A DNA stretch of 41,272 nucleotides from a virus. Taxonomy: Duplodnaviria > Heunggongvirae > Uroviricota > Caudoviricetes. The notes beneath the pieces were generated by a model that searched no databases, was not told the origin of the DNA, and was given only the letters and a program-made list of their open reading frames with translations. Shown in pieces: positions 951-35,287 of this stretch. Each line of letters begins with the position of its first letter. Position 1 is the stretch's first letter. The position numbers and the translations under genes are program-made. The stretch is from positions 138,011 to 179,282 of IMG/VR virus record IMGVR_UViG_3300014204_000001; one strand, written 5' to 3'.

Positions 951-1550
951 TCACCACTGTACTGGCCTTCCAGTTATCTGCGCCATCTGTTCGGAGATCG
1001 GTGTACCTTCATCTACTCGGTGTGGCATCGGCGGTGCTTCTGCTACTGGCGGTAACAACGGCCTCAGAGGTGCCTTTGCGTTAAACCCTGAACCTAGAGC
1101 GTGCCCGAACTGCCCGCCCAAGACACCACCACCCATCTGGCCAACCATACCCAAAGGCGTTCCGGCGAACCCGCCAAGTGTGCTACCGATCATGCTTCCT
1201 ACCGCAGATCCCCGAGCTTCTGCGGGAGCCTGCGCCGACTGGTACAGTCCATACAAAGGCATCCCATACAGCATGGCAGCCTGAGCGAGGCCACCTTTCG
1301 TATTCAGCGGGGCTGTCTTGAATACGTTGCGCAGCATACCATCTTCTGCGAAGAGCCCATTGTTCTTCAACTGGGTGTAGAACTTTTTGGGATCGCCAAG
1401 CATGAACTGCTTAGCTCGGCCCGGCCAGGTCTTAAAGTCGGGCTTTAGATAGTTGCGAACGGCGCTCCAGTCGACGGTGGACGCGACTTTGGCACACCCG
1501 TAGTAGGCGAGTGCATCAGAGCAACCGTGCTGGTGTGCGGTTTTGCGCAT
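951..1550 (-). CDS. Hypothetical protein with Gly-rich hydrophobic (glycine-zipper-like) C-terminal half; putative virion protein
   Basis: 199 aa; start overlaps the upstream stop (TGATG coupling); GSMIGSTLGGFAGTPLGMVGQMGGGVLGGQFG segment; N-terminal AHQHGCSDALAYYG motif shared with two neighbours. Confidence 0.7.
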   Translation of the reverse strand: MRKTAHQHGCSDALAYYGCAKVASTVDWSAVRNYLKPDFKTWPGRAKQFMLGDPKKFYTQLKNNGLFAEDGMLRNVFKTAPLNTKGGLAQAAMLYGMPLYGLYQSAQAPAEARGSAVGSMIGSTLGGFAGTPLGMVGQMGGGVLGGQFGHALGSGFNAKAPLRPLLPPVAEAPPMPHRVDEGTPISEQMAQITGRPVQW

Positions 1551-4214: not shown

Positions 4215-4364
4215 CTACTTGGACAACTTGGCTGGAGGCGTCTTGCGCTCGCTCCAGCCTACTTCGGGCAACTTGAGCAGTGGTAATTGGGGTTTGGTAC
4301 ACGGCGTCTCGACGCGGTACTTTTCCTGTGCGGCGGCGACACCCCTTTCGTAGGCAGTGTTCAT
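4215..4364 (-). CDS. Small hypothetical protein, 49 aa (not in ORF track)
   Basis: ATG overlaps the RNAP stop (TGATG); MNTAYERGVAAAQEKYRVETPCTKPQLPLLKLPEVGWSERKTPPAKLSK; shares the N-terminal motif of two neighbours. Confidence 0.6.
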   Translation of the reverse strand: MNTAYERGVAAAQEKYRVETPCTKPQLPLLKLPEVGWSERKTPPAKLSK

Positions 4365-10159: not shown

Positions 10160-10166
10160 GCTCAGA

Positions 10167-10172
10167 AGTATA
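10167..10172 (-). promoter_or_regulatory. TATACT -10-like hexamer 7 nt upstream of the RNAP ATG (putative leaderless promoter)
   Basis: Minus strand reads ggcTATACTtctgagcATG with no SD; a second TATACT at 10191-10196. Confidence 0.55.
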
Positions 10173-10248
10173 GCCTGGCCGTTTGGTATTAGTATATGTA
10201 CCCGGCAGATTTGGACCGGGAGGGTTGTCCAACTTGATTGGAGTTCCA

Positions 10249-10914
10249 ATGACCAAGAAGGTCCAAGGTGCAAGTGTGGTGCCCCTCGCCACGCTGCACC
10301 CCATGCCAGACCTGAAGTTGGCCATCGTGGGGGTCGTAGATGGCCGCGAGGCGGAGATGGCAACCCGCCTCGGCGTGAGCGGCGACAAGATGTCGCGGAT
10401 GGCCGCTCTCGTCAGGGAGGCAGAGCTGAAGCATGGGAAGTGTCTCTTCTGTGGGGAGCCGCTTCCCGCGTCCTTCAAGCAAGCAGCAAAGTTGGGGTGG
10501 GCGCATCTCGCCCCAGTGCTGTGCCCATGTCTGGGTTCAGTGCGCACGGGTTACCGTGAGTACATCCCAAACTGGCAGCAGCAGGTCGCTATGATCGCGG
10601 CCAGGGTGGAGGCGCGGGAGCTGGACGCTACGGCTCCGGTGTACTCCAACACCTGCCGCGACCATGGCACCAACCCCCAGTGCCAGGGGGTGTTCACTGT
10701 CTACGCGGGCGATGTGGCCCGCAATGTCCGCAAGTGGGGCCAGCACGAGCGCTGGACCCGGTGCGCCGCCTGTCGTGCGGTGCACTCGAACAACGCCCAG
10801 TCCAAGAACATCCAGCGGCCGAAGAAGCAGCAGCGCCACGACGCACCGCTGAAGGCGTCTGTTGGTGAACTGGTCGAGGCGCAGGCTCAGACTAGGAAGG
10901 TTGGCGAGGCCTAA
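10249..10914 (+). CDS. Cys/His-rich zinc-binding protein
   Basis: GGAG RBS before ATG 10249 (MTKKVQG); CLFC...HLAPVLCPC and C-terminal CRDH...CQGVFTVYAG...RCAACR, reminiscent of zf-trcl zinc ribbons. Confidence 0.65.
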   Translation: MTKKVQGASVVPLATLHPMPDLKLAIVGVVDGREAEMATRLGVSGDKMSRMAALVREAELKHGKCLFCGEPLPASFKQAAKLGWAHLAPVLCPCLGSVRTGYREYIPNWQQQVAMIAARVEARELDATAPVYSNTCRDHGTNPQCQGVFTVYAGDVARNVRKWGQHERWTRCAACRAVHSNNAQSKNIQRPKKQQRHDAPLKASVGELVEAQAQTRKVGEA

Positions 10915-18320: not shown

Positions 18321-19322
18321 ATGACCGACACGACTCCAGAAGTTGTCCCTGCGGCAACCACCTCGGACGCGAAGGTGGAAGCCCCCAAGACGGAGAAGCG
18401 CGCAGAGGGACGTACTTTCAAGGCGCCCACGCTTCTGCTGACCCAGATCCACGCGGACCCTGCTCGGAACGACCGCACCGATCTTGGCAACATCAGCGAC
18501 CTCGCGGCGTCGATCAAGAAGGAGGGGATCATTCAGCCGCTCGTCATCAGCGACGAGCCTCGAGAGGACGGGAAGTACGAGCTGGTGGCAGGCTACCGCC
18601 GATACAACGCCGCCAAGATGGCGGGCCTGAAGGAGGTTCCCGTCGTCAGCCAGTCGGTCGACTCGCTGCGCCGCCGACGTGTCCAGCTGATCGAGAACCT
18701 GCACCGGGAGGATATGAATCCACTCGACAAGGCCAACTCGATCCACAAGATGATGGAAGAGGAGAAGATGGAGAGCCAGAAGGAAGCGGCCGAGGCGCTC
18801 GGTCTCTCCGCTGGCGCCATCTCCCAGTACATGTCCCTCCTGAATCTGCCCAGCAAGGTCCAGGCGGCAGTGAAGTCCGGCAAGGTCGACTTCACCGTGG
18901 CCCGTGAGCTCACGCGGCTCAAAGACGAAGAGAAGATCGTCGAACTGCTCCCTGAGGCGCAGAAGATGAGCGTCTCCGATGTGAAGAACAAGGTCGACTT
19001 CCTCCTCCAGAAGCAGAAGGAGAAGGAGGAGAAAGAGGCCGACAAGGCCAAGGCTCGGGAGAAGGCCAAGAAGACGCCTACCGTAGGTGTGCAGGCCGAG
19101 GCTAGCGAGGAAGAGGAAGAGAAAGACCTCGCCACGTCGGTCAAGGAGCTCGGGTTCGAGCCTCTGAAGAAGACCGATCTGCTGATGCAGATCGTGGCCT
19201 ATGCCAACAAGTTCTCAAGGGCCAAGACCGAGGAGAGCAAGGCGGAAAACCGCCACATCCTCCATGGCCTTGCCATCGCCGCGGGAGTTGACTTCAAGAA
19301 GTTGCTCAACGAGATCAGCTAG
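18321..19322 (+). CDS. parB: ParB/Spo0J-family protein
   Basis: LAASIKKEGIIQPLVI, YELVAGYRRYNAA (GxRR), LIENLHREDMNPLDKA, HTH SQKEAAEALGLSAGAISQYMSLLNLP. Confidence 0.9.
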   Translation: MTDTTPEVVPAATTSDAKVEAPKTEKRAEGRTFKAPTLLLTQIHADPARNDRTDLGNISDLAASIKKEGIIQPLVISDEPREDGKYELVAGYRRYNAAKMAGLKEVPVVSQSVDSLRRRRVQLIENLHREDMNPLDKANSIHKMMEEEKMESQKEAAEALGLSAGAISQYMSLLNLPSKVQAAVKSGKVDFTVARELTRLKDEEKIVELLPEAQKMSVSDVKNKVDFLLQKQKEKEEKEADKAKAREKAKKTPTVGVQAEASEEEEEKDLATSVKELGFEPLKKTDLLMQIVAYANKFSRAKTEESKAENRHILHGLAIAAGVDFKKLLNEIS

Positions 19323-21463: not shown

Positions 21464-22336
21464 ATGCTCGAGATTCCTGAACACGTACGCCTGAATGGGC
21501 CCTGGAGTATCTCCAAAGCCCAAATGGCGGAAAAGTGCTCACAGCAATTCGACTTCAGGCATCACCAGAAACTCAAAGAGATTTCGGTCTACCAGGCCAG
21601 CCGCGTCGGTACTGCGGTGCATAGGGCACTGGAGCTCGCGCTCCAGAACGCCGCGTTGAAACAGGCGTTCTCCATCGCTGCCGATGAGGGGGAGCTTACC
21701 GAAAACGAGCGTGTGGAGCTCTACACGTTTTGGGACTCCGTCGCGCGCTACATCAAGTTCATCGCAGAGCTTAAGCGCAAAGTTGGGTGCCGGGACGAAC
21801 TATTCGAGCGGCGCTGGGGCGTCCGTGTCGATGGCTCGAAGTGCGGCTTTTTCGACAAGGATGTTTTTTTCCGCGGTGTGGTAGATCACGGGATCCTTAC
21901 GAATGCCAACGACCTGATCATCTTCGACCACAAATCTGGTAAGGAGAAGGAGCTCTCCTACTACGACCCACAGTTCCGTGGTTACGGCTTGATGGCTGTC
22001 GCACAGATCCCGAATTTGCGCGGCGTGCAGACGGCCATCCATTTCGTGGTTCCGGGCACAGAGCGCTGGAACAAGCCCACTGCGTCTAAGACCATCCGCG
22101 AGGGCTTGACGCCCAAGAGGGATGGCGACAAAGTCGTCTGGGAACATACCGAAGATCCGTACCTAGACTGGTTGATCAAGTTTCTCACCAAGAGCTGCAT
22201 CAAGCTGCTCGGCCCTCCAGCAGTGATCACCAACAAGCGTGAGAAGTGGAAGTGCGACTGGTGTGGTTTCAGGACGGTCTGCAAAGGACCTTTTGCTGCC
22301 GAGGCAGGGCGTGCCGAGTCCGAAGGCAACAACTAA
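21464..22336 (+). CDS. PD-(D/E)XK nuclease, RecB/AddB/Cas4-like (second copy)
   Basis: WSISK...KCSQQF, GTAVH, RGVVDHG...IFDHKSG, QFRGY, C-terminal CDWCGFRTVC. Confidence 0.85.
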   Translation: MLEIPEHVRLNGPWSISKAQMAEKCSQQFDFRHHQKLKEISVYQASRVGTAVHRALELALQNAALKQAFSIAADEGELTENERVELYTFWDSVARYIKFIAELKRKVGCRDELFERRWGVRVDGSKCGFFDKDVFFRGVVDHGILTNANDLIIFDHKSGKEKELSYYDPQFRGYGLMAVAQIPNLRGVQTAIHFVVPGTERWNKPTASKTIREGLTPKRDGDKVVWEHTEDPYLDWLIKFLTKSCIKLLGPPAVITNKREKWKCDWCGFRTVCKGPFAAEAGRAESEGNN

Positions 22337-25300
22337 AGGTCCGGCCAAGCTCTCCGAGAAACAGTTTCGGAAGATCTGGTCGGACATCAAGATACCGGTA
22401 CTGGTAGAACGCCTTCGGGCGCTCCAGCCACAAAGTCACTGGTCTGCCTCGGGCAACCAGATCGTGGGCTGCTGCCCGTATCACGATGAGTCCACGCCCT
22501 CTTTCCGCATCTACGTTGATCGTGGTTACGCAAAGTGTTTCGGCTGTGACAAGTACGTCACGAACCCGCTTCAAATCTGGGCCAAGGTTCGTGGCTGCTC
22601 GTTGACTGAAGCTTTGGCCGAGTTTCGCCAGTTCTTCGGTCTAAAATTCCTTCCGGCGTCGGCCAACAGCCAGATCGCAAACTGGGATCGCAATCAGTTG
22701 CTCAAACGGCGGATTATGGGGATCTGCCACAACGAGCTCCTGGCTGCTTTGGCTGATCCCTCTGACGCAACGTACGCCACGGCACATAACGCAGCAAAGT
22801 ACTTGGTGCAGACGCGTAAGATTCCAGTGGAGACGCTCCCGGCATTGCCGATGATTGGCGTGATGCCGCCGATAGCGCGTATCACTGAAATTCTGCGTGT
22901 TGAAGCTGAGCGTGAAAACGCACGCCGCAAGTCCGAAGCGGATCTGCGTGGTGAGAAGTACGAGGTATTCGAGTCTCTCGAGGAATCCGCTCGCGCCTAC
23001 CTTCAACCGGCGGCTGGTTGGATAGGCGCAGTCGTCTTTCGCCTCGACGTAGCACCGGACACTATCGGGCGACTCAAGCTGCGACGTCCCTTTGCGAGCT
23101 CGAGCACCGTGACGCAGTTACCCGATGAGTTCGAGGACGCGAGTGGCTTCTACGGCCTTGGATGGCCCATGTACTCGACCATCCTAGGTGCTCAGCAGAA
23201 ATACTCGTGGCCGTATGTGGTTGAAGGTGAATTCGACGCCTTGTCGATCATGGCGCGACAGGTACAGGCAGGTGGGCCAGGCTTCATGGTTATCGCCGCC
23301 GGCGGATCGTATGGCAGCGAACACATTGACGATCTAGCATCCCTCGGCTTTAGCGACGTCTACCTATTCAGTGATGCACCCGGGCCAAAGAAAGGCGAAG
23401 CGCTCATACGTCAATGGCTTCCAACTATCAAGCGCATGCGCGCGAAGATCTTCACAGGCTGGGGGCAATTCCCGGGCGCGGGAGATCCTGATGAAGCTGT
23501 GGTAGCCTGCGGGCTAGACAAGGTCCAGCAAGTCCTGCTCGACGTCAAAAACAAGGACTACTTCCAGAATCCTCCGGACTGGGTATTCGAGCAGGCGCAG
23601 CCTGAACTGGAAGCCATCGATACTGACGATGCAAGGCATCGCATTGAAACAGCTAGCAGTTGGGGGCAGTTACTCAAGAACAGCGTCGATCTCGACCTGT
23701 TTGTGAAGAGCTGCGCGGATGTCTACGGCGTCCCTGGCGCACTCCTAAAGCGAGAGATCACAGCCAAGGAAGAGGATGAACCCGCGTTCATCATGCGCGT
23801 CGCCGATGTGCTAAGCACTGTCTTCTACGTGCTCGGGCAGCGCTCGTTCGATAGCGACCGCAAGCTTTACCTGTGGTACCGCGAGCAACAAAAAATCGTG
23901 CAGATCTCGCTCGCTGACGACACCAGTATCGAACGCGAGCTTGGTACGAGTCTCGGGCCCACGTATCAGTTGTTTCAAGAGAGAATCGGCATTCCGCCGT
24001 TTCTTGAGAGTGGCGCAAGCCTCAAAAAGAAGTCTCAAGAGTACTCCTGGTACCTACGACAAGCACTCCTCCTCATGGCACAGAACGCTCCGGACTACAA
24101 CGCGGCCCAGCACAAGGGTCAGGGCATCCACGTCATCCGCGGCAAGGATGGTGCACCTCCGACCGTTTACCTAGTAAACGGCAAGGACGTGTACTGGGGC
24201 GCGTTCGACGAGCATGACCAGCTCACCTGGAAGAAGCTCGAGGGTCCTGCGCACAACGGTATCATCTTCGACATCACTACAGGGCACTCGTTCGAAAAGC
24301 CGTGGCTGCCCTGGATCGCGTCTGTGGAAGATCTGGACAAGGCTTCAAACGTTAACCTACAGGATTGTTGGGACAAGTTGCACCGGGCACTGGATATCGG
24401 TTGGCGTTACAAGAACCACCAAGTATCCACCGAGTTCCTCACGGGGCACCTTCTAGCAACTACTGTGGCTAGTGCATTCCGGCGCCAGATCTTTTGTGCG
24501 TTCCACGCAGACACGTCATCAGGTAAGTCCCGCATGGTCATGGGCCTTATCGGTGGGAACGACTTCCCCCGCATGCACCTCATTGCGGCGACCACCTCGA
24601 TTCCGCAGTGCACCCCTGCGGCTATCCGCCAGGGTATGAACAACAAGACCCGCGCACTCTGCCTCGACGAGTTCGAGGACGACGGCTCAGGAGATAGAAA
24701 GTCCAGAAATGTCTCCGAGATGCTGGAGATGTTCCGCAACCTGACAGGTGAGAACAACAGCTACCAGATGGGCTCGCGGTTCAACGAACCAGTCGTGTAC
24801 AATCTCAACTTTTTCATCTTCACAGCCTCAATCAATAAGGCGCGCAAGGTCCAGGATGCTAACCGTATGGTTACGGTATTTCTCGAGCGCCAGACGGGGC
24901 GCCTCGACCCGCAACTCGTGTTGTTGAACGAGTTCGGCATTGACGGGATCGAGAGGCTAAAACAGGACCTGTCAATCGGCCTACTGCCGAAGATCTCCCA
25001 GCTTCAGCATCTGTTCGACGAGGTAGAAGAAGAGTACTCGAAGCCTGGATCGCGCCCAACGTACATCGACACGCGCACGTTCGAGACCCTCTTCCCGACC
25101 GTGACTATCATGAAGTTGCTGAAAAAGGACTACCACCAGTTCATTGACGACTTCTGCCTTGCGAACCAGGAGACGTTCGCCATCAGTGCATCGCATACAG
25201 ACTCAATGGAATTGTTCAACTGGCTATCGCAGAGCCCTATGCTCATCCACCGCGATGACAATAACAACAAGGACAGAGCGAGTCTGCTCCAGCTGCTGGC

Positions 25301-25709
25301 TACCACGGATACCCGCGCAGAAATCAACCGATGCGGCTCAGGACTGTATTGGGACGAGGAGAGCAAGATCCTCGTGGTCAGCTGGACCACCGCGATCCAA
25401 ACTGTCTTGTCAGGTCACACGCGTTATGGCAAAGAGACGAATGTGCCCAATATGCGCGAGCTTGCGAACCGCGCTCCACACGCGCTGAGGTCTGACGAAC
25501 TCGAAAGTAGTACAGCCCTTGCACGCCTCAAGATGCAGGGACTTGGTGGCGTACCTGTGACATCCCTGACGGGATACCGGATGCAGCACATCCTTGCAGG
25601 TATGACCGGCTCCTCGACACTGCCAGAAGACGAACCCAGGAAGCTTGCAGGCGCCCACCCGGCGCTCGAAAAGAAGAAGGAAGTCAATGGTGGAGACCTC
25701 ACAACCTAG
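22311..25709 (+). CDS. Primase-helicase fusion (CHC2 zinc finger + TOPRIM + P-loop domain)
   Basis: CCPYHDESTPSF...KCFGC (CHC2), YVVEGEFDALS (TOPRIM), HADTSSGKS (Walker A-like), LCLDEFE (Walker B). Start GTG 22311 after GAGG is tentative. Confidence 0.85.
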   Translation: MPSPKATTKGPAKLSEKQFRKIWSDIKIPVLVERLRALQPQSHWSASGNQIVGCCPYHDESTPSFRIYVDRGYAKCFGCDKYVTNPLQIWAKVRGCSLTEALAEFRQFFGLKFLPASANSQIANWDRNQLLKRRIMGICHNELLAALADPSDATYATAHNAAKYLVQTRKIPVETLPALPMIGVMPPIARITEILRVEAERENARRKSEADLRGEKYEVFESLEESARAYLQPAAGWIGAVVFRLDVAPDTIGRLKLRRPFASSSTVTQLPDEFEDASGFYGLGWPMYSTILGAQQKYSWPYVVEGEFDALSIMARQVQAGGPGFMVIAAGGSYGSEHIDDLASLGFSDVYLFSDAPGPKKGEALIRQWLPTIKRMRAKIFTGWGQFPGAGDPDEAVVACGLDKVQQVLLDVKNKDYFQNPPDWVFEQAQPELEAIDTDDARHRIETASSWGQLLKNSVDLDLFVKSCADVYGVPGALLKREITAKEEDEPAFIMRVADVLSTVFYVLGQRSFDSDRKLYLWYREQQKIVQISLADDTSIERELGTSLGPTYQLFQERIGIPPFLESGASLKKKSQEYSWYLRQALLLMAQNAPDYNAAQHKGQGIHVIRGKDGAPPTVYLVNGKDVYWGAFDEHDQLTWKKLEGPAHNGIIFDITTGHSFEKPWLPWIASVEDLDKASNVNLQDCWDKLHRALDIGWRYKNHQVSTEFLTGHLLATTVASAFRRQIFCAFHADTSSGKSRMVMGLIGGNDFPRMHLIAATTSIPQCTPAAIRQGMNNKTRALCLDEFEDDGSGDRKSRNVSEMLEMFRNLTGENNSYQMGSRFNEPVVYNLNFFIFTASINKARKVQDANRMVTVFLERQTGRLDPQLVLLNEFGIDGIERLKQDLSIGLLPKISQLQHLFDEVEEEYSKPGSRPTYIDTRTFETLFPTVTIMKLLKKDYHQFIDDFCLANQETFAISASHTDSMELFNWLSQSPMLIHRDDNNNKDRASLLQLLATTDTRAEINRCGSGLYWDEESKILVVSWTTAIQTVLSGHTRYGKETNVPNMRELANRAPHALRSDELESSTALARLKMQGLGGVPVTSLTGYRMQHILAGMTGSSTLPEDEPRKLAGAHPALEKKKEVNGGDLTT

Positions 25710-28700
25710 TTGGTCTTGTTCCCTCTGCCCAAAGCCCAAACCCGCTGCCTGGTGTGTTGGGTGTCCCCGTGAAAACCCGATATCCCGTATTGATCACGAG
25801 GGCAAGTACAAAGTTACCGAGCCCAACCACTTCATTGATGCTCGCATAAAGGCACCAGCGAACGTGGTGATCCTGTCTGAAGCGCAAATCGTCCCCCGCA
25901 TGGTGGACGTGAACGCGCTGCACCGCCCGTTCGAAGACGATGCAGGTAAGCTGATTACCCGCGCCGTTGCAGCCCTTAAAGCAGAGAAAAACACCAACTT
26001 CGCCACGCTAGACGTGGGCCGCACGTACACCGTCCTCTGCACGGGAGAAGACCCCAGCAAGCAGACGCTTGATCGCTGTAACGGCTTCTTGGCGTCCAGT
26101 CTCGAGAAGGCGTGCAGTGGTGATAAGACACCGATCATCCTGGCCATGGGGATGTCCGCAGTAAAGGCACTCGGGATCAAGGCCAAGAAGCTTAAAGACG
26201 TCCAGAGCCGAGTACTACCAGGAGTCGTGTATAACGGCCGGTCTTACAACGTGGTAGTTACCATCTCGTCCAAACAACTGGTCGCGATGGCCGGCTTCTA
26301 CAACACATTCTTCACGGACCTGCGCCGAGCCTTCGAAATCGCAGATACAGGCGTTCTACCTACCAGTATCTCACTCGAGGAGTTGACCAAGGATTACCTT
26401 CTCCCGATGACTGTGGAGGACGCACGAAAAGCATGCGAGATCATTCTTGCTTATACGGAAAATGGTGTTCCCCCGGACGAGTGGTCGATTTCTACTGACA
26501 CTGAGACGAACACCAAGTTCCCCCACCGAAATACGCTGAAGGTCCTGTGCGTATCTTTCGCCTGGGCAGATGGCAAAGCGTGTGCCATCCCGCTCTGGCA
26601 TCCGGAAACACCTTACGATCCCCAGCTGGTTGTGCCGTACATCCGACAAGTAGTCGAGAGCGCGAAGCCCAAGATTCTCCACCACCTCAAGTTCGACAAC
26701 AAGGTATTCATGAAACTGGGGTGGTCGCTTAACCACATCAAGTGGGACTCGATGTTGGGCGAGCACCTGAACGAGGAGGATAAGAAAGGCCTCTATGGCC
26801 TGAAGGAGATCACGCGCACGGAGTTTCCTGCGTTTGCGTCCTATGCCGACATCCTTCACGAGATGCTCACGAAAGAGGAGGGTGACTCACAGCTAGACAA
26901 CATTCGCAAGAAGCGAAAGAAAGAAGCAGAGGCAGATGGGCAGGCGCTAGGAACAGCTACAGAACCAAAGAAAAAGAAACTGACCAAGGCGCAGCAGAAG
27001 AATCAGGACGGTGGTTTCGAGAAGATCCCGCTACCACTGCTAATGCTCTACGCGGCGGTCGACACAGACATGACAAGGCGCATCGCCGTGAGGCAGGTGC
27101 GCCGCGCCATCGCAGAAGACAAGAAGATCTACGAAAAGCGTCTATTGTTGTCTCGCGACAGAACTCGCCGGTTCCCGGTGCCAGCGTTATGTAAGACACC
27201 GAACCCCGTACGCCACCTGATGGAGACTGCCTCCATCCCGTTGGCTAAAGAACTGTCGAAGATGGAGTACCAAGGCATCCGTGTAGACCGCACGTACCTG
27301 TCCAAACTCAAAGAAGACCTTGGAACAGTCATCGCGAATGCACAGAACGAACTCTTCACGATGGCTGGGAAGACGCCGGAAACGCTGAACCTCAACGCCC
27401 CTGCAGCGGTGGCCAACACGCTCTTCTCCGAGGGGTTTATCCACCCTGAGACAGGTGTACGTACGTACTATCCGCCCGTCAGCTTCACGAACAAAGGGCA
27501 GATGCAGACGACCGAGAAGGTGCTGAAATTCCTCGTGGCCAAATACGAGTGCCCGTTCTCGGCCAAAAAACTGATCTACAGTAAAGCGTTCAAGGCAAAA
27601 AATACCTTCTGCCAAAACGTGTGGGATCTGTCCGAACTGGATGGCTTCCTACACACGAACTATAACCAGCATGGAACTGCGACGTATCGGCTCTCATCTA
27701 ACGATGAGAACATGCAGAACATCCCTAAGGAACTGGCTGGGTATTTGATCAAGAAGGTGTTCATCCCGGATGATGACACCTTCGCGTTCGTGAACGCAGA
27801 TGCGAAAGGTGCCGAGGTACGCATCTTTACTGCGTACAGCCGGGATGCTGCACTTATCGAGTCGCTCAACAGTGGGCAAGATACACACTGCTTCATCGCA
27901 TCGAAGATCGTAGGTCTGGTGCGCATGGAGCCAGGTGCGAAACAGCATCTGGAGTCTATGGGCCTCAACGACGAGTACCCGCTCACGTACGAAGACTTCG
28001 CGGCCGCTAACGAAGGCCGTATCGAAGACAAGACGTACGCAAAGATGCTGAAGAAGTTCCGCACAGCGGTCAAACGTGTCGTCTTCGGCATCCTCTACGG
28101 CGCAGGCGCTGGTAAAATCGCAGAGACTATTGGTATCAGCCTCGAGCAAGCCAGGACTCTCATCAACCTGCTGTTCAGCATCTTCCCGTCCATCCCGCGG
28201 TACATGGACCAGACCAAATGGGAACTCGACCAGATGGGCTTCGTCGAAACCTATTTTGGTCGCCGGCGGCGTTTCAACGTAAAAGGCGCCACGGGGTATC
28301 TCAAGAGCCGCGCTCAACGGCAGGGGATCAACTTCAAGGTTCAGTGCACCAGCTCAGATATTGTACTCAGCCGTCTAGTTGAATGTATCTCGACGCTCGA
28401 ACGCGATCTGCATGGTCGTATGCTACTCACGGTCCACGACAGCTTGGGGTTCCAGCTGCCTAAGAAATATCTGTCCCAGCTACCTGATTTCGTTAAGTAC
28501 TACCTGGAGAAGCGCACGGCCGAAACCTGCCCTTGGCTTCCGGTCGTGTTCAGGTGGGACTATGAAGTGGGCGATAACTACGGCGAGCTCATGCCGTATG
28601 ACGCCTACATGAAGGGCCTCAAAGAAAAGGAGAGCATCAGTGAAACTGAGCAAGCCTACTCCGAAGAAGAAATCCGTACAGAACTCGCGGCCATCGACGA

Positions 28701-28713
28701 TCACACTACCTGA
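25687..28713 (+). CDS. polA: Family A DNA polymerase with N-terminal uracil-DNA-glycosylase-like domain and 3'-5' exonuclease
   Basis: Exo I STDTET, Exo II HHLKFD, Exo III YAAVD; RLSSNDENMQNIP; motif A ADAKGAEVR; motif B RTAVKRVVFGILYG; motif C TVHDS. N-terminal Cys cluster, VVILSEA, PF...AGKL, IILAMG pattern resembles family-4 UDG fold. Confidence 0.93.
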   Translation: MVETSQPSWSCSLCPKPKPAAWCVGCPRENPISRIDHEGKYKVTEPNHFIDARIKAPANVVILSEAQIVPRMVDVNALHRPFEDDAGKLITRAVAALKAEKNTNFATLDVGRTYTVLCTGEDPSKQTLDRCNGFLASSLEKACSGDKTPIILAMGMSAVKALGIKAKKLKDVQSRVLPGVVYNGRSYNVVVTISSKQLVAMAGFYNTFFTDLRRAFEIADTGVLPTSISLEELTKDYLLPMTVEDARKACEIILAYTENGVPPDEWSISTDTETNTKFPHRNTLKVLCVSFAWADGKACAIPLWHPETPYDPQLVVPYIRQVVESAKPKILHHLKFDNKVFMKLGWSLNHIKWDSMLGEHLNEEDKKGLYGLKEITRTEFPAFASYADILHEMLTKEEGDSQLDNIRKKRKKEAEADGQALGTATEPKKKKLTKAQQKNQDGGFEKIPLPLLMLYAAVDTDMTRRIAVRQVRRAIAEDKKIYEKRLLLSRDRTRRFPVPALCKTPNPVRHLMETASIPLAKELSKMEYQGIRVDRTYLSKLKEDLGTVIANAQNELFTMAGKTPETLNLNAPAAVANTLFSEGFIHPETGVRTYYPPVSFTNKGQMQTTEKVLKFLVAKYECPFSAKKLIYSKAFKAKNTFCQNVWDLSELDGFLHTNYNQHGTATYRLSSNDENMQNIPKELAGYLIKKVFIPDDDTFAFVNADAKGAEVRIFTAYSRDAALIESLNSGQDTHCFIASKIVGLVRMEPGAKQHLESMGLNDEYPLTYEDFAAANEGRIEDKTYAKMLKKFRTAVKRVVFGILYGAGAGKIAETIGISLEQARTLINLLFSIFPSIPRYMDQTKWELDQMGFVETYFGRRRRFNVKGATGYLKSRAQRQGINFKVQCTSSDIVLSRLVECISTLERDLHGRMLLTVHDSLGFQLPKKYLSQLPDFVKYYLEKRTAETCPWLPVVFRWDYEVGDNYGELMPYDAYMKGLKEKESISETEQAYSEEEIRTELAAIDDHTT

Positions 28714-29128
28714 GAACGGCCTCGCCATGTTCGACCTTAATGGTATGCGGGTTGTGGGCCGTGTCGTCAAAGACGACGGCCGCAAACTGTTCCTCGAGTG
28801 GCCAGGTTGTTTGGCCTTCCGTCCTGAACAGCAAGTCTCTGGTACTACCGCCATTAAGGCTAGCATCCAGCCGATCATGCCTCAGCCGCGCATCTACATC
28901 CTGCGCGATGCCGCCATCCGTGGGGAGTTCTACCTAGCCGAGCCTTGGGCCAAGGAACTCTATGCGGAGTTTCGTGCCAACTGCGAGAAGGGGCTGTACG
29001 GTCTCAATCCCTTCATCGAGCCCGTCTCCCGGCTCGTGGAGCTGCCGAAGGACTCCGTGAGCCCTGAGCGTGACACGGGCGCCGTGTTGGAGGTCGCTAC
29101 CCCTGCGACTGAACCCAGCGATGGCTAA
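28640..29128 (+). CDS. Hypothetical protein
   Basis: AGGAG RBS + GTG (alternative ATG at 28727); beta-strand-rich central region. Confidence 0.65.
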   Translation: MKLSKPTPKKKSVQNSRPSTITLPENGLAMFDLNGMRVVGRVVKDDGRKLFLEWPGCLAFRPEQQVSGTTAIKASIQPIMPQPRIYILRDAAIRGEFYLAEPWAKELYAEFRANCEKGLYGLNPFIEPVSRLVELPKDSVSPERDTGAVLEVATPATEPSDG

Positions 29129-29378
29129 GCGTCTCAAGAAAAACCTGGCTGATGAGCAGTTGGCATCGCTTGTTGGCCAAGTCGTGACGCTATACCTCCA
29201 GAGTGGCCGTGCCATCATTGGACAGCTGCTTTCGTTTGACGAGTCCAGTCTGAGCATCGAAGGGGAGGCTCACGGCGAGGACCCTATCATCTCGCGGACA
29301 CATATCAGTTCGTTTCGGCGAGCAAACCGCGAAGAAGCACAACGACACGAGAGGAAGCGCCATGGCAGCCCGACGTAA
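29121..29378 (+). CDS. Hfq/Sm-like RNA-binding protein (85 aa)
   Basis: VTLYLQSGRAIIGQLLSFDESSLSI aligns with Hfq Sm1 ([25 protein letters not shown]); IISRTHISSF aligns with Sm2 (MVYKHAISTV). Confidence 0.7.
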   Translation: MAKRLKKNLADEQLASLVGQVVTLYLQSGRAIIGQLLSFDESSLSIEGEAHGEDPIISRTHISSFRRANREEAQRHERKRHGSPT

Positions 29379-29910
29379 TCTACTGTTCACCGACTCCGAA
29401 ACCTTGGGCTTGAACCCCAACAACTATGAGCTCATCGAGCTCGGAGCCATCTTGACCACGCCAGACGGGCTCAAGGTACTGGACCAGTTCGAAGCGAAGG
29501 TGCAGCCTCGGTTCCCTCAGCTGTTCGAGACCAAGGCCGCAGAGGTCAACGGCTACAACCCTGTTTCGTGGCAACCGACCATGGCCCCGAGGGACGCCGC
29601 CCTGAAGTTCTGCGGCATTGCAGAGGATGTCACTCTCGTGGGCCAGAACATCGGATTCGACGAGGGGCACATCCTGGCGTTCCTGAGCAAGCTGGACCTC
29701 AAGCCTACGTGGCACTACCACAAGGTCGACTGCGCTGCGCTGGCCTGGCCTCTGTTCGTGAAGGGGCGCATCAAGTTCGTCAGTCTGAACACCGTACGCG
29801 AGTACTTCGGCTTGCCGAAGGAGGTTACGCCTCACCGTGCCCTCCAAGGCGCAATGGCCGCTCGAGAGGTGTACCTAAAGCTCATGGAACTGTACGTGAA
29901 CATCGCATAG
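29362..29910 (+). CDS. DEDDh 3'-5' exonuclease (DnaQ/RNase T-like)
   Basis: FTDSETLG (Exo I), IELGAI, GQNIGFD (Exo II), HRALQG (Exo III; usual last Asp is Gly). Confidence 0.85.
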   Translation: MAARRNLLFTDSETLGLNPNNYELIELGAILTTPDGLKVLDQFEAKVQPRFPQLFETKAAEVNGYNPVSWQPTMAPRDAALKFCGIAEDVTLVGQNIGFDEGHILAFLSKLDLKPTWHYHKVDCAALAWPLFVKGRIKFVSLNTVREYFGLPKEVTPHRALQGAMAAREVYLKLMELYVNIA

Positions 29911-29937
29911 GAAGGCTTCTAGACCTGTAGATCAGGA

Positions 29938-31129
29938 GCCTGCGCAACGCAGGCGGTGGTTTTCGCCCGAAGACTGGCACGCACAGCACGCGCTTCGGCG
30001 ATGGTAAGCGCCTGGGCGAAGAGTGCTGATGCGCGCCAGAACTTCGGGCCGGACGGTGATGCCCCAAAGTAGAAGCTTCCAGCTCGATAAATCGAGGCCT
30101 GCGTAACGCAGGCGCAAGAGTCATCGACGATGACTTGAGCATCCTCCGAGTCAATTTCGCAAAAAGCGCGAAATCGCCCCCTCGGACAGCCAAGTCATCG
30201 TTGTAAACAATACAACAAAGTGGAAGTTCAATCGAAAATCCCGTAGTATGTAGGTATAAGGCGATGACGTAAGGCCTTTGCATCGGCACCCGCTGATGGT
30301 TGGCTTAAAGGTCTTTATAGAACGAGTCTTGCTCAGCTCAACTGAGGCCTGCGTAACGCGGGCATGTAGCTTTCGGGCGGGTAAGCCGCCCGACAGGGTC
30401 ACAGCACCCACTCGATCAGGAGATGTGCGGAACAAAGAAGACTCGTTGTCCGTCTGATCATATGACGAGACGGCCAAACAAAGAAGACTCTACAAGCCCT
30501 GCTCAAACAACTGAGTCTTGCTCCTAACCGAGGCCTGCGTAACGCAGGCGTAAGGTACTCGGGCCTTAGGCCCGATCAGATCTCGCTCCAGGTGCTCGAG
30601 ATGTACGAGCTCCGGCGGAGAGAGAACGAAGAAGACGCTACAAGCCTTGCTCAAAAAACCGAGGTCTGCGCAACGCAGACGCACTACAGGCAGTGATGAG
30701 CACCCAAGCGCTCAACAAAGAAGGCTTGTTTTGAACCTAGCGCGTAGTTACCGCGGTCTGCGCAACGCAGATACACCAGCTTCGATCTCAGTTCTTCTCA
30801 ACATGGAGAAACCTAGTAGGTTCATGAGTTCAGTCCAAAGCACGGAACCTGCGTAACGCAGGTACAGGATCCGCGCCCATAGGGCGCAAGGTGTGCAGGG
30901 AGTTCCTCGAGGCCGCCAGCGCGGCGCACACCACGAAGTGAACTCACACGATTCAGTCCACAACATGGAGCTGACGCAACGTCAGCGGAGTCGACCCAGC
31001 CTTCGGCTGATCAGATCAGGGTATCCGAGAGCCGCAAGTTCCGGAGCTCATCAGCTTAAGAGCTACCAAAGTGAATCGTGTCGAAACAAAAGGACTCGGT
31101 GCAAAAGTAGCAGCTCGCGTAACGCGGGC
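29938..31129 (+). repeat. Array of nine 17-nt hairpins, consensus GCCTGCG-YAA-CGCAGGC, with unique spacers
   Basis: Copies start at 29938, 30097, 30347, 30533, 30664, 30756, 30847, 30970, 31113; stems show compensatory changes. Confidence 0.9.
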
Positions 31130-31229
31130 AAGGCAGCGTAATCGGTCCGCGTCTCTGTGGTGAGACGCGTCACCATTTTCTTTCCATCTAAAGAAACTGG
31201 CGACCAAAGCGAGTCCAGAAACGGCGCAA

Positions 31230-31261
31230 GCCGCCGATACGCCGCGAGGTGTATCGGCGGC
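31230..31261. terminator. 14-bp hairpin with GCGA tetraloop (terminator or RNA 3' end)
   Basis: GCCGCCGATACGCC-GCGA-GGTGTATCGGCGGC, 20 nt from terminase stop; no clean U-tract immediately adjacent. Confidence 0.5.
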
Positions 31262-31280
31262 GAACGCGCCATTTCTTTTG

Positions 31281-33977
31281 CTACGCGTAGAAACGCAGAT
31301 CTGTCGTGTGCAGCTTGAATGCGAACCAGCCGAACAGCTGCGCGTGCAAGCTGTCATCAGGCAGGGTTGGCGAATGGCGCCAGACCTTCTTGCCCATGGT
31401 AGTGACTTCCTCGTAGATGTTGAGGATGTCTTTGATCGGATCTACCATCTCTTCATAAGGAGGGTACTCGACACCCTGCTTCTTGAGCACCATCAAGAAG
31501 TTGTCGATCAGCGTCGTGCGGTCGGCATTGTAGCGGTCTAGGCCGTTCCACTTGCATGGAACCTGCTGTGAACCATACTGCACCATCGTGCAACGGTGAG
31601 GACCTAGCCCATCACGAAGCATAGAGTTGGGCAATGCTCCTTCGCCTGCGTCGCCTACGACCACAGCGACATTGTACATCTGGAGAATCTCTAGGATGTC
31701 CCGCACATCATTAACTGGGTTGTTACCCGGGTAGATCCTGTAGTAAAGCGTGCGCAACTTCTGCGTCTTGGGCATCCAGCCCCAGACCCAAAGAACGGTC
31801 CGCGACACTCCAGAAGTACCCCCGCCGGACCAGTCGACGCCTGCCACTGTCACTGAGACGTCTTTCAGGTTTCCCCGTTGATCAGGCTTACGCTGGATAC
31901 TCGGCCCAACGCACAGCGCCTTGAGCTCCTCAAGCGAAATAAGTCGACGACCGATGGCGTCAGAAACACCCAACACCTCGTTGCGGAACTTTGAGGGACC
32001 GAAGTTCTCCATATCCGTGAGGATGTCGTTCCAGCGCTCCTGAGCCGCCCGCTGTGACTCGGGGTCATTGTGACATCCGGGGATATTGAGGGGCATGATG
32101 GGCGATGGGATATGGAAGCCCTTGATGTAGCGGAACTCTACGCCCGACGTTGGATCCCAGTTAGGAGGCGGCTCGGGCTTGCGCATATCTACCCATATGC
32201 CGCCACGTGGGTTGAGCGTTTTTCCGCAGTGAAGGCAGATCGGCCCACGCTTCCCAATGGCCTTCTCGCTGATCACGTAGTTATACTTGGAACACCCATC
32301 ACACTTCATTACCCATTCGCTCTGAGTCGACTTCTCCCAGTACACCTGGATGGGGTTCTCCATCGTTTTGGGTGTACCTGTGTACGTCTCGTAGCGGTAC
32401 TGTGAGTTCTTCATGGACGCAGTGACGACTGGGACTACTGCATCCGACAACATATCCTGGAATTCGTCGAAACTGTTGCCACAAATGATAGGCTTGCTCT
32501 CAAGGCCTCCTTTCACAACCAGCCGATGGTGCGGTACCGTAAAACAATAGACATCTTCCGCAACAACCGCGTGCGCCGTTACGCGATTTTTGGTGGTAAA
32601 ATCTGCGCGCCAAAAGATCATCTCAGTATATTTGCAGGGGCGAATCTCGTACAGAGGTTTTCCAGTCATCTCACGTACGTACACAGTGCACGCACGTCCA
32701 AGGCGAAACCAGGCCTCTTGAACATCCTCTGCGAGCTGTTTACTTCGCGTGCGCAGTGTTCCAGTATCCCAAGGTTCCCCTGCGTGGTAACACGCGTCAC
32801 CGAGATAGATACCTTTTAGAACCTCAGTCAACAATGATGCGTGTTCAAAAAACTCCCGCGGGATAAACTTGTCGAAGGATTTTCCCAGGGGCTCGAAATA
32901 GCGCCCTAACGCAACCGAGTTAAGGTGCACATCGGCTGCCGTACGTGTTCGATACGGTCCGTTCGTAAAATGCGGAATACCTGCGGCGTCAGCCAACTCT
33001 TCAATCTGCTTCAGATAGCGCCCAGGGGTTTGTGTGATGACGGGATTGGGGTGCGTGCGGTTACCTTGCCACGTACGCCACGCAAGAGACCCTTCGGAAA
33101 TGTACCAGCCGACCAACTGAGCGAAGGGTTGGTACTTTACCGTAATGTGCGTCCCCGGTACGCCGTCGAACGTTCTCGTTTCAGGTGGTACCGAGTAGCG
33201 CGGTGTCGTCTGGGATGTCAGCTTAAAACCCATGCGCTCCGTACTAATCAACTCCTCGGCGGACATAAACGAGTAATCATCCGGCACCTGAAGTTGAGGT
33301 TTCACCTTGAGGTTGGCCCACATACGGTGATTGCCTGTTACACGCAGGAAAAAACCTCGGTGCTTAAACTCAATCATTGTACCGGTGTATTCTTCGTGGA
33401 TGAGTGCGCTCGGACGATGCCACTCGATCTCCCCTGCACTGTCCACATCGGCAAGAATATCGTCAGCACGCACAGCCTCTACTGCGGCCCATCCGCGTGC
33501 TGTAAGTACCTGTGTGCCTTTGGCGTAACAGCAGCGGTCAGCTGAGAAGCCACGCGCGCGGTCGGCGTCCTCCTGCGCATAAGTAAAAGCATTCTCACTT
33601 CCGTTGGTATAAGCACGGTGGAGGACTCGGTCAGCATGTTCAGGGGACTGAAAATGTTTCCTGACGAGCGGTGAGTAGGCTAGTGTTTTTCCAACACGCG
33701 TATTGGAGAAGATTAGCGTCTGCTCCTTGGTCGGGGATACGTAGTATTCCCGAAAGAACGGAATTGCGACGCTCTCCGCGATAATGAAATTAGCCAGCGA
33801 GGTGCTTTTTCCGATCTGACGTCCACACATCATGAGCGTTGATTTGAAGCGTCCATCGTAAATCGCCCGCTGCATCGGGTAGTCAGCGAACGAAAACGGG
33901 CGTCCGTCAAGCCACAGTAGTGACTCGGCAATTTGAGAAAGTCTCTTGGCCGGAAGTTGCAGCATTTCCACCACCAT
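31281..33977 (-). CDS. terL: Terminase large subunit with intein
   Basis: YPMQ, CGRQIGKS (Walker A), YVSPT, RARGFSADRC|SFDEFQD (Walker B after splicing), TGTP, nuclease GVDWSGGG, VGDAG, DDSLH. Start at 33977 or 33965. Confidence 0.92.
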   Translation of the reverse strand: MVVEMLQLPAKRLSQIAESLLWLDGRPFSFADYPMQRAIYDGRFKSTLMMCGRQIGKSTSLANFIIAESVAIPFFREYYVSPTKEQTLIFSNTRVGKTLAYSPLVRKHFQSPEHADRVLHRAYTNGSENAFTYAQEDADRARGFSADRCCYAKGTQVLTARGWAAVEAVRADDILADVDSAGEIEWHRPSALIHEEYTGTMIEFKHRGFFLRVTGNHRMWANLKVKPQLQVPDDYSFMSAEELISTERMGFKLTSQTTPRYSVPPETRTFDGVPGTHITVKYQPFAQLVGWYISEGSLAWRTWQGNRTHPNPVITQTPGRYLKQIEELADAAGIPHFTNGPYRTRTAADVHLNSVALGRYFEPLGKSFDKFIPREFFEHASLLTEVLKGIYLGDACYHAGEPWDTGTLRTRSKQLAEDVQEAWFRLGRACTVYVREMTGKPLYEIRPCKYTEMIFWRADFTTKNRVTAHAVVAEDVYCFTVPHHRLVVKGGLESKPIICGNSFDEFQDMLSDAVVPVVTASMKNSQYRYETYTGTPKTMENPIQVYWEKSTQSEWVMKCDGCSKYNYVISEKAIGKRGPICLHCGKTLNPRGGIWVDMRKPEPPPNWDPTSGVEFRYIKGFHIPSPIMPLNIPGCHNDPESQRAAQERWNDILTDMENFGPSKFRNEVLGVSDAIGRRLISLEELKALCVGPSIQRKPDQRGNLKDVSVTVAGVDWSGGGTSGVSRTVLWVWGWMPKTQKLRTLYYRIYPGNNPVNDVRDILEILQMYNVAVVVGDAGEGALPNSMLRDGLGPHRCTMVQYGSQQVPCKWNGLDRYNADRTTLIDNFLMVLKKQGVEYPPYEEMVDPIKDILNIYEEVTTMGKKVWRHSPTLPDDSLHAQLFGWFAFKLHTTDLRFYA
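32475..33530 (-). mobile_element. Intein with LAGLIDADG homing endonuclease in TerL (352 aa)
   Basis: ADRC|CYAKGTQVLT...VTGNHRMW...LVGWYISEG / IYLGDA...VYCFTVP...ICGN|S. Confidence 0.92.
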
Positions 33978-34006
33978 TTGTTGAGTACTTAGGGAGCATA
34001 CCACAC

Positions 34007-35287
34007 ATGGCTCAAGCACCAGAGAAGATCGCTCAGCAGGCATACTATGACAAGTACGGGATTCCTCGCGTCACCTTGGCAGAATTCGTTTGGAATCTCG
34101 AGCTGTCTATCCAACAGAACCAAACGCGAGGCGTCCTCTGCGCCATCTCTGAGGCAGGTGTAGGCAAGTCACAGGTGGTCAAGCAACTCGCCCGGAAGTA
34201 CGACCGGCGCGTCGTCGACATCAGGACGAGTCAGTTCTCGCTCATCGGCGCTGGTGTTCCCCAGCGCGCCGATGATCAAGGCTACTTCCAGATCGCCGTA
34301 CCCGCGGACTACCCCAAGAAGGATGAGAAGTGCATCCTCCTCTTCGACGAAATAAATCAAGGGCAATCCCATGCGATTGCCATGTTCTTTAAGCTGCTCG
34401 AGGACCGCGGCATCTACAACTACGAGCTGCCCGATGACTGTATCATCGTGGCACTCATGAACCCCTCGACGGCGCAGTACAATGTGACGAAGATTGAGAC
34501 GAATCCGGCGATCAACCGGCGTCTCATGAAGGTGTACGTGTACGCCACGTTCACGGATTGGGTAGCGCACGCCAAGACTAAGGAGTTCCACTACACCGAC
34601 TTCCCCGCCGAGGGCGGGCGCCCCTGTCATCCCTGGGTGCTCAAGTTCCTCCAGACGGAGAACAAGCTGTTGTACCGTGACGTCGACCGAGATGGGAACC
34701 AGCAGTTCGCCTGCCCGGCGACCTGGCAAACGGTTTCCCTCAGTCTCTACAACCTGGAGGCGGCCGGTGAGCCCATCGTCTCAGAGCGTGCGGAGAACCG
34801 CATCGCGATGAGCGTGAACCCGGTCATCGCGAGGTCGTTGCTCGAGTACATCCGCAACAATGAAGTGCGGATCTCGCCCGATGAGATCCTCTTCAAGTAC
34901 AAGGCCCGAAGCAAGCTCCGCGAGCGCATTCTCGCGCTGAAGGACGAGCCGGGTGGTGAGTACCCCAAGCTCATCGAGAACGTGGCCAGCTACTTGTTTA
35001 CCGAGAAGCCTAAACCGGGCGACATCGGAACACAGCTGGTGCTCTTCTGGTCAGACATGCCGCTCGAGCTCGCTCAGGCATTCTTCCAGATGATTGCCAC
35101 AGTTGCGGAGGCCGGAGATCCGCAGAAGATCTCGGCCAATCGTCAGTACATGAAGGCTCTGACGAACGAGATGCAGACCGACAAGTTGTGGATCGAGACG
35201 AACCAAAAGATGATGCGGACCCAGAATGACTTCGAGCGCGCCCTTAAGGGTGATAAGGCGTCTCTGGATCCGATGAATCAGAAGTAG
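34007..35287 (+). CDS. MoxR-like AAA+ ATPase
   Basis: GGGAG RBS before ATG 34007 (MAQAPEK); SEAGVGKS (Walker A), ILLFDEIN (Walker B), IVALMNP, PAINRR, CPATW. Confidence 0.88.
   Translation: MAQAPEKIAQQAYYDKYGIPRVTLAEFVWNLELSIQQNQTRGVLCAISEAGVGKSQVVKQLARKYDRRVVDIRTSQFSLIGAGVPQRADDQGYFQIAVPADYPKKDEKCILLFDEINQGQSHAIAMFFKLLEDRGIYNYELPDDCIIVALMNPSTAQYNVTKIETNPAINRRLMKVYVYATFTDWVAHAKTKEFHYTDFPAEGGRPCHPWVLKFLQTENKLLYRDVDRDGNQQFACPATWQTVSLSLYNLEAAGEPIVSERAENRIAMSVNPVIARSLLEYIRNNEVRISPDEILFKYKARSKLRERILALKDEPGGEYPKLIENVASYLFTEKPKPGDIGTQLVLFWSDMPLELAQAFFQMIATVAEAGDPQKISANRQYMKALTNEMQTDKLWIETNQKMMRTQNDFERALKGDKASLDPMNQK

Follow-up and report, generated by a model that had tools for sequence, protein, structure and literature searches.

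What is a run of nine short inverted repeats doing between the replication genes and the terminase gene of a large uncultured phage? The stretch of DNA analysed here, called the window throughout, covers 41,272 nucleotides (positions 138,011 to 179,282) of the Caudoviricetes record IMGVR_UViG_3300014204_000001, a 179,282-bp sequence of 57.5% G+C. A 123-bp repeat common to both ends of the record indicates that the assembly is circular. The repeats fill a 1.37-kb gap, free of open reading frames (ORFs), between convergent genes, and an earlier interpretation made from the letters and ORFs alone (the sequence-only reading) had taken them for an array of RNA hairpins separated by unique spacers. 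We report that each repeat is one arm of a larger module which, judged by sequence comparison, is a new structured RNA family, supported by covariation and matching no catalogued family. The locus is, with considerable confidence, a structured RNA array; more tentatively, its transcript may bind proteins in a multivalent fashion.

The nine 17-nt units are present with the starts, sequences and start-to-start spacings (159, 250, 186, 131, 92, 91, 123 and 143 nt) that had been described. All lie on the + strand, each with exactly seven pairs closing a loop of 3 nt, and the three non-Watson-Crick pairs among them are indeed T-G or G-T on that strand. Their core heptamer, CGYAACG, is mildly enriched in the window (20 occurrences vs 12.5 expected), and in every one of the 11 copies outside the array the flanking stem has at most five pairs; chance was rejected as the source of the array on that account. 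Throughout the 179,282-bp genome the array is the sole cluster of CG-YAA-CG hairpins, and the one other seven-pair hairpin stands alone at genome position 62217.

These units, which we term HP1, form the middle and most regular arm of a repeated, non-coding module of three hairpins. From 5′ to 3′ the module starts with a hairpin (P2) abutting HP1 and HP1 itself. A probably single-stranded linker of 9-10 nt, mostly beginning with A, leads to P4, a hairpin rich in G and C whose loop has three or four bases; beyond P4 lie variable hairpins and then the purine-rich stretch MMCRAAGWRRA. P2 has a stem of 3-7 bp and a loop of 4-8 nt and ends 0-2 nt before HP1; its stem sequences are diverse, and a stem of at least 4 bp was found in 51 of 65 units vs 12.5% of shuffled flanks. 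The whole non-coding array (29911-31143, + strand) begins at the stop codon of the exonuclease gene, runs up to the terminator and holds nine intact modules and a decayed one. Its HP1 copies, all on the + strand, lie at 29938-29954 (copy 1; 7 bp, loop CAA, P2 29924-29936), 30097-30113 (copy 2; loop UAA, P2 30083-30096, P4 30119-30135), 30347-30363 (copy 3; loop UAA, one U-G pair, P2 30332-30346, P4 30373-30393), 30533-30549 (copy 4; loop UAA, P2 30517-30532, P4 30559-30575), 30664-30680 (copy 5; loop CAA, P2 30650-30663 with 3 bp), 30756-30772 (copy 6; loop CAA, one G-U pair, P2 30741-30755), 30847-30863 (copy 7; loop UAA, P2 30834-30846, P4 30873-30887), 30970-30986 (copy 8; loop CAA, P2 30957-30969, P4 30997-31009) and 31113-31129 (copy 9; loop UAA, one U-G pair, P2 31100-31112 with 3 bp). 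The decayed tenth unit, at 30299-30315 (+), retains two Watson-Crick and two G-U pairs next to an intact P2 (30282-30297). It is orthologous to intact units at L125:12678 and L126:12198 in two related contigs (blastn aligned 30276-30310 with L125:12655-12689 and L126:12173-12207), and it accounts for the unusually long spacing of 250 nt, within which it sits.

Nine + strand copies of the purine-rich motif occur between 30063 and 31096 (starts 30063, 30214, 30431, 30477, 30625, 30714, 30932, 31065 and 31085), most of them 29-47 nt upstream of the next HP1. Searches of the whole genome with two patterns of the motif placed seven of the ten + strand matches inside the array; being array-specific, the motif was rejected as a genome-wide promoter. 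Its predicted unpaired probability is 0.55, vs 0.38 across arrays. Unit 3 (30431-30490) contains the motif twice, as AACAAAGAAGAC at 30431 and 30477, suggesting that about 46 nt were duplicated within it recently. The segments between HP1 copies share P2, P4 and the purine motif, so the description of them as unique spacers is not borne out, and it misleads because they are paralogous structured bodies. Three further features were considered for the module and discarded: a closing helix between the post-HP1 linker and the region before the next P2 (mean of 4.30 pairs vs 4.31 in shuffled controls), a four-way junction closed by UCUUG/CAGGA, which RNAalifold gave on one alignment only and which was gone on the trimmed alignment, and a UUCG tetraloop as evidence for RNA, an argument that is mostly invalid and went unused because most P4 loops are UUC triloops. 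The lone hairpin outside the array (TACCCCG-TAA-CGGGGTA, intergenic, G000:62210-62226, outside the window) has the HP1 geometry and no recognisable P2, P4 or purine motif.

Viral and metagenome collections were searched for similar DNA polymerases to gather relatives of the locus. A syntenic + strand array is present in every contig with 49-75% polymerase identity that reaches beyond the exonuclease, in a conserved order of DNA polymerase, Hfq/Sm-like gene, DEDDh exonuclease, array and convergent terL. Module copies number 3-11 on 12 related contigs and 1-3 in more distant relatives. L125 carries 11 units, L126 at least 5, and L136 and L139 8 each, with the HP1 loops UAA, CAA, AAA, CAG, CUA or UUA. 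In a second clade (L127, L128, L129, L131, L132, L135 and the fragments L134 and L142) the arrays consist of 3-5 units, each 190-200 nt long, that are orthologous between phages and kept in order, with the HP1 loop UAG (UAU in L142) and a nearly invariant P4 apex, AGC-CUA-GCU. Distant relatives (31-41% polymerase identity) keep the polymerase/terL convergent junction; L130, L141, L153, L155, L167, L170 and L173 have 1-3 modules with YUA loops, and other distant relatives have none. Where related phages are without modules, only a terminator-like palindrome occupies the polymerase/terL gap. The type of HP1 loop is uniform within a clade and different between clades (YAA/AAA, UAG or YUA). The array of L139 (L139:2313-3612) mixes the HP1 loops UAA, CAA, CUA and UUA, with P4 loops that are mostly UCC, so that loop identity is less uniform there than in other phages.

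The last module of the UAG clade differs from the others (L127:12230-12420, L128:9720-9900, L129:12540-12740, L132:12290-12480 and L135:3870-4060). There, an upstream GGUGAUUC and the GAGUCACC that overlaps the ribosome-binding site of the next + strand ORF can form an 8-bp helix, and the module could thereby close a translational switch. The small + strand ORFs that follow include one for a DnaJ-type CxxCxGxG zinc-finger peptide (L129:12729-12913).

Conservation of the hairpins in related phages with compensatory changes, which the sequence-only reading had called for, was looked for and found on the 12 related contigs. Across 67 HP1 copies (49 distinct sequences) from 13 contigs, all seven pairs change on both sides; there are 84 double-change cells vs 19 in shuffles, and the covariation score of 0.816 (0.265 when shuffled) collapses once the pairing register is slid. 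These copies came from a scan that required pairing, which makes their 100% pairing uninformative; the diversity of pair types is not a product of that selection. In an unbiased rescan, which allowed any mismatch and asked for at least five of seven Watson-Crick pairs, every non-Watson-Crick pair of HP1 was G-U on the + strand (27 cells), with zero A-C. Three helices of the second clade are 98% paired, with compensatory changes at eight pairs. Even between phages whose DNA polymerases are 75% identical, blastn barely aligns the arrays outside the hairpins, which indicates that selection acts on the fold; what it would preserve is that fold, together with a small number of bases in loops and closing pairs, rather than the sequence. 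A covariance model built from the 190-200-nt clade matches the window units weakly (E 0.04-3).

Rfam 15 had no match at its gathering score anywhere in the window, and at E ≤ 10 the arrays of the window and of L125 drew only chance-level microRNA or small RNA matches. ARAGORN found no transfer RNA (tRNA) in the window, and there is no TROVE gene that would suggest a Ro60/Y-RNA link. The region had no blastn match among 50,697 phage records, tblastn of the DNA polymerase detected no cultured relative above 26% identity, and an exact 15-mer scan of IMG/VR returned single chance matches only.

How would such an array be expressed? No ORF within it shows conserved translation in relatives. It has the orientation of the upstream operon; genes for a primase (22239-25709, +) and a family-A DNA polymerase (25645-28713, +) lie on that side. 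No sigma70-like promoter was found inside the array, and the only + strand terminator follows the last unit, no other unit having a terminator-like 3′ end. This terminator-like hairpin (31144-31190, +) comes directly after the last module; its 8-bp stem joins 31148-31155 to 31162-31169, and a T-rich run lies downstream of it. A long GC-rich hairpin with A- and T-rich flanking runs (31219-31283, strand unassigned) lies just beyond the stop codon of the large terminase subunit gene, terL (31281-34043, -), which forms the right boundary of the array; this hairpin is probably a bidirectional terminator that closes the convergent junction. With no conserved ORFs, no internal promoters and a terminator at the end, the locus does not code for protein and is probably transcribed into a single polycistronic + strand RNA, as had been proposed. 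The CRISPR (clustered regularly interspaced short palindromic repeats)-like repeat and spacer layout that went with this proposal is not retained.

The array would thus correspond to one long + strand non-coding RNA, most likely an untranslated 3′ extension of the replication-gene transcript ending at 31144-31190. The function that we favour, at somewhat less than even probability, is that of a multivalent protein binder, a scaffold or a sponge, in which structured modules follow one another in tandem. HP1 would be its specific recognition hairpin, and the constant geometry of HP1 together with its clade-specific loop suggests a co-evolving reader. The purine-rich stretch would be a candidate landing site for the ring formed by the Hfq/Sm-like protein encoded upstream. 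Similar arrangements exist among bacterial sponge RNAs: CsrB and RsmZ, which bind CsrA, and CrcZ, which binds Hfq/Crc, also consist of many stem-loops with one single-stranded motif per unit, and their copy number likewise varies between relatives. The array motif AACAAAGAAGA, found in several units, resembles the A-rich Hfq sites of CrcZ. In contrast to CsrB and RsmZ, the array is without GGA loops; unlike CrcZ, the arrays of L125 and L126 have the motif CCCRAAGUGRA, which is not A-rich; and, unlike sponge RNAs in general, the array has a fixed three-hairpin module, is phage-encoded and occupies a 3′ untranslated position. We infer transcription as a single RNA, protein binding and an Hfq-like partner from these features of sequence and arrangement.

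An Hfq-binding RNA presupposes an available Hfq protein, and here an Hfq/Sm-like gene lies directly upstream. It encodes a small protein of 85 aa (29121-29378, +) and is found in the polymerase/exonuclease interval of 12 related loci. The window copy scores 20.5 bits against Pfam LSM and that of L125 24 bits, which passes the cut-off; at 38.6 bits against Hfq (PF17209), the L126 ortholog exceeds the threshold of that Pfam family. When the 12 positional orthologs were combined into a profile, nearly all of its matches among solved structures were Hfq proteins (best 3ahu, E 9e-6). By these profile matches, the product of 29121-29378 is a genuine Sm/Hfq relative, and to our knowledge no phage Hfq has been characterised. 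The proteins have basic N-terminal tails (PKPTRRKKS...). As the partner of the array RNA, the Hfq-like protein is suggestive only. Small nuclear RNAs have Sm sites flanked by stem-loops, and by analogy a phage Sm-type ribonucleoprotein can be envisaged in which Hfq/Sm-like rings would sit on the single-stranded purine sites separating the hairpins, with HP1 as a second protein handle specific to the clade; such a large particle would, in an infected cell, reprogramme host RNA metabolism or sequester host Hfq. We regard this elaboration as unlikely.

Several observations weigh against a multivalent RNA with an Hfq-like partner. Two of the three module hairpins bear triloops, a loop size met more often in hairpins of DNA than of RNA. 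A closing helix for a whole unit could not be established. The Hfq-like gene is absent beside the 1-3-copy modules of distant relatives, for example L130, L153 and L155, and is for that reason not an obligatory neighbour. Not every clade has a purine motif that makes a clean Hfq site of the (ARN)n or (AG)n kind: many units have two ARN triplets, those of L125 and L126 do not, and a terminator is found only at the last unit. In the complex of B. subtilis Hfq with (AG)3A an arginine contacts G (PMC3287200), and this residue is not conserved in the phage proteins. Finally, the exonuclease that adjoins the array, a DEDDh 3′-5′ enzyme of PolC/DnaQ proofreading type (29362-29910, +; stop codon 28 nt before HP1 copy 1), resembles a DNA proofreading enzyme and not an RNase (Pfam RNase_T, E 2e-12; PDB 2p1j PolC exonuclease, E 4.5e-12; NCBIfam PolC and DEDD exonuclease families). 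It probably serves replication rather than RNA trimming, and its adjacency was given no weight because of its resemblance to proofreading domains.

Could the hairpins instead act as DNA? Each unit is a near-perfect 17-bp palindrome, and the window encodes a ParB-like protein (18321-19322), so that duplex sites for a protein (parS for ParB, operators or iterons) come to mind; they are scarcely credible here. Duplex sites would be expected to drift symmetrically, and the asymmetry of the 27 wobble cells, all G-U on one strand, argues against them. The stem sequence is free while pairing is kept, the opposite of a sequence-specific duplex site, and all copies share one orientation and have asymmetric flanks. 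Action on + strand single-stranded DNA (ssDNA), whether in priming by a primase-helicase at sites of G4 type or like plasmid ssi, as a replication origin where the replication module ends, or as promoters like those of phage N4, is improbable rather than implausible. In its favour, a triloop is a typical feature of stable hairpins in DNA, a DNA polymerase gene accompanies the element in every case, distant relatives included, and G-T is tolerated in DNA hairpins, so that the strand bias alone is compatible with ssDNA. The early promoters of N4, DNA hairpins that its virion RNA polymerase reads, have a 5′-GRA-3′ template-strand loop with fixed -11R, -10G and -8G (PMC4496689); like the array units, they combine 5-7-bp stems (7 in the array), whose sequence is free if paired, with a 3-nt loop and function on one strand. 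An N4-type promoter was nevertheless rejected: the + strand loops of the array read HAA, UAG or YUA, those of the - strand are the complements of these, GRA is not among them, and the N4 loop with its sheared G:A pair (PMC4496689) is absent from both strands. N4 has three sites upstream of early genes, the array 4-11 in a 3′ gap; unlike N4, this phage encodes a multisubunit polymerase of its own and a sigma factor, and no match to the T7-like Pfam RNA_pol (PF00940) was found in the genome, although control genomes gave no signal either. With the + strand as template, transcripts would run antisense into the replication genes. GC skew has no feature at the array position and is uninformative as an origin marker. 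RNA accounts better for the G-U closing pair kept in 15 of 19 clade-B copies, the strand-specific purine motif, the operon orientation and the + strand terminator, and also for the + strand ORFs with ribosome-binding sites directly downstream of the second-clade arrays, where the last module belongs to the 5′ leader of those ORFs. That selection acts on the + strand, most likely as RNA, had been the proposal of the sequence-only reading; the G-U-only deviations support it, and we consider it quite probable that the element works as RNA.

If the element is RNA, cleavage at or close to every module might split the transcript into about eight small RNAs that act in trans by base pairing or as guides, each with a specificity of its own conferred by its variable body; we consider this unlikely. 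The polycistronic layout, with neither internal promoters nor internal terminators, would suit such processing, as would the adjacent gene for an Hfq-like chaperone and bodies that differ between units yet are orthologous and in order between phages; an endonuclease could enter at the single-stranded purine-rich stretches. Yet HP1 lies between P2 and P4 and not at the edge of a unit, units lack 3′ ends of their own of the terminator kind, the neighbouring exonuclease is of DNA proofreading type, no cas or other guide-using effector was identified, and the best antisense match in the rest of the phage genome, 14 nt, equals that of shuffled arrays. The analogy to a precursor CRISPR RNA (pre-crRNA) drawn by the sequence-only reading is unsupported on the same ground of HP1 position and because the bodies are paralogous. 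Pre-crRNAs processed by Cas6f/Csy4 do resemble the array in having hairpins of one orientation on a single transcript with differing intervening sequence. A CRISPR array was rejected as an explanation: the units are non-identical (they differ at five of seven stem pairs) and spaced at 91-250 nt, and the spacers are structured, mutually homologous and, in the 190-200-nt clade, orthologous between phages. A scan of window proteins revealed no cas genes. NsiR1 of Anabaena and LhrC1-4 of Listeria, like the array, are paralogous structured non-coding units placed head to tail; their copies have their own promoter and terminator and are close in sequence, whereas the array has no internal sites and its units share shape and little sequence. 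A passive role is quite improbable as well, the array then being a 3′ buffer at the convergent junction, that is, a shield against exonucleases of the kind provided by repetitive extragenic palindromes (REPs), a polymerase stop or insulator before terL transcription, or both. The array always lies in the polymerase/terL convergent gap, where module-free related phages have only a terminator-like palindrome, and its hairpins are GC-rich and very stable. A stabiliser or terminator would not need the three-hairpin geometry, the fixed 7 bp, the clade-specific loops or the conserved single-stranded motif; no U-tracts follow the hairpins, and in one clade translated ORFs lie downstream on the strand of the array. 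REPs and bacterial interspersed mosaic elements (BIMEs) share with the array GC-rich imperfect palindromes, intergenic at operon ends and sometimes clustered. REPs are dispersed, mobile, alternating in orientation and similar in sequence, whereas the modules have one orientation, are syntenic and are conserved in structure only; a REP/BIME or an element like a miniature inverted-repeat transposable element was rejected since all copies, bar the lone look-alike at 62217, occupy one locus of the 179-kb genome.

Other genes of the phage complete the setting. The terL product (920 aa) has terminase matches split by an insert that matches LAGLIDADG and intein-associated families, and its relatives align in two blocks (residues 7-180 and 523-919); the intein-like insert is consistent with an intein carried by the window's copy. 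The phage encodes split subunits of a multisubunit RNA polymerase, a sigma factor and ParB. A protein of 1999 aa (window 4364-10363, -) combines RNA-polymerase beta-like segments with a domain of virion or minor-head proteins, and a second beta-like piece is encoded separately (window 1550-3349, -); together, these products may form a virion-associated multisubunit polymerase. Outside the window, the stretch G000:45451-48342 brings together tRNA-Gln, tRNA-Thr, a transfer-messenger RNA (tmRNA; tag ANDNINVFARQLAVA) and an RtcB RNA ligase, which suggests a module for tRNA repair and counter-defence; the genome's only tRNAs and its tmRNA lie here, at 45.4-46.9 kb.

The locus has a bearing beyond this phage. 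Large uncultured phages evidently maintain a dedicated non-coding RNA locus over long evolutionary distances, in which the number of modules has grown from 1 to 11 and whose gene order includes a phage Hfq/Sm-like gene. Whatever its function, the family is a new structured RNA with clean support from covariation, and it can now be modelled and searched for. If the RNA and the Hfq-like protein cooperate, they would constitute a virus-encoded RNA-chaperone system, of which we know of no description in phages.

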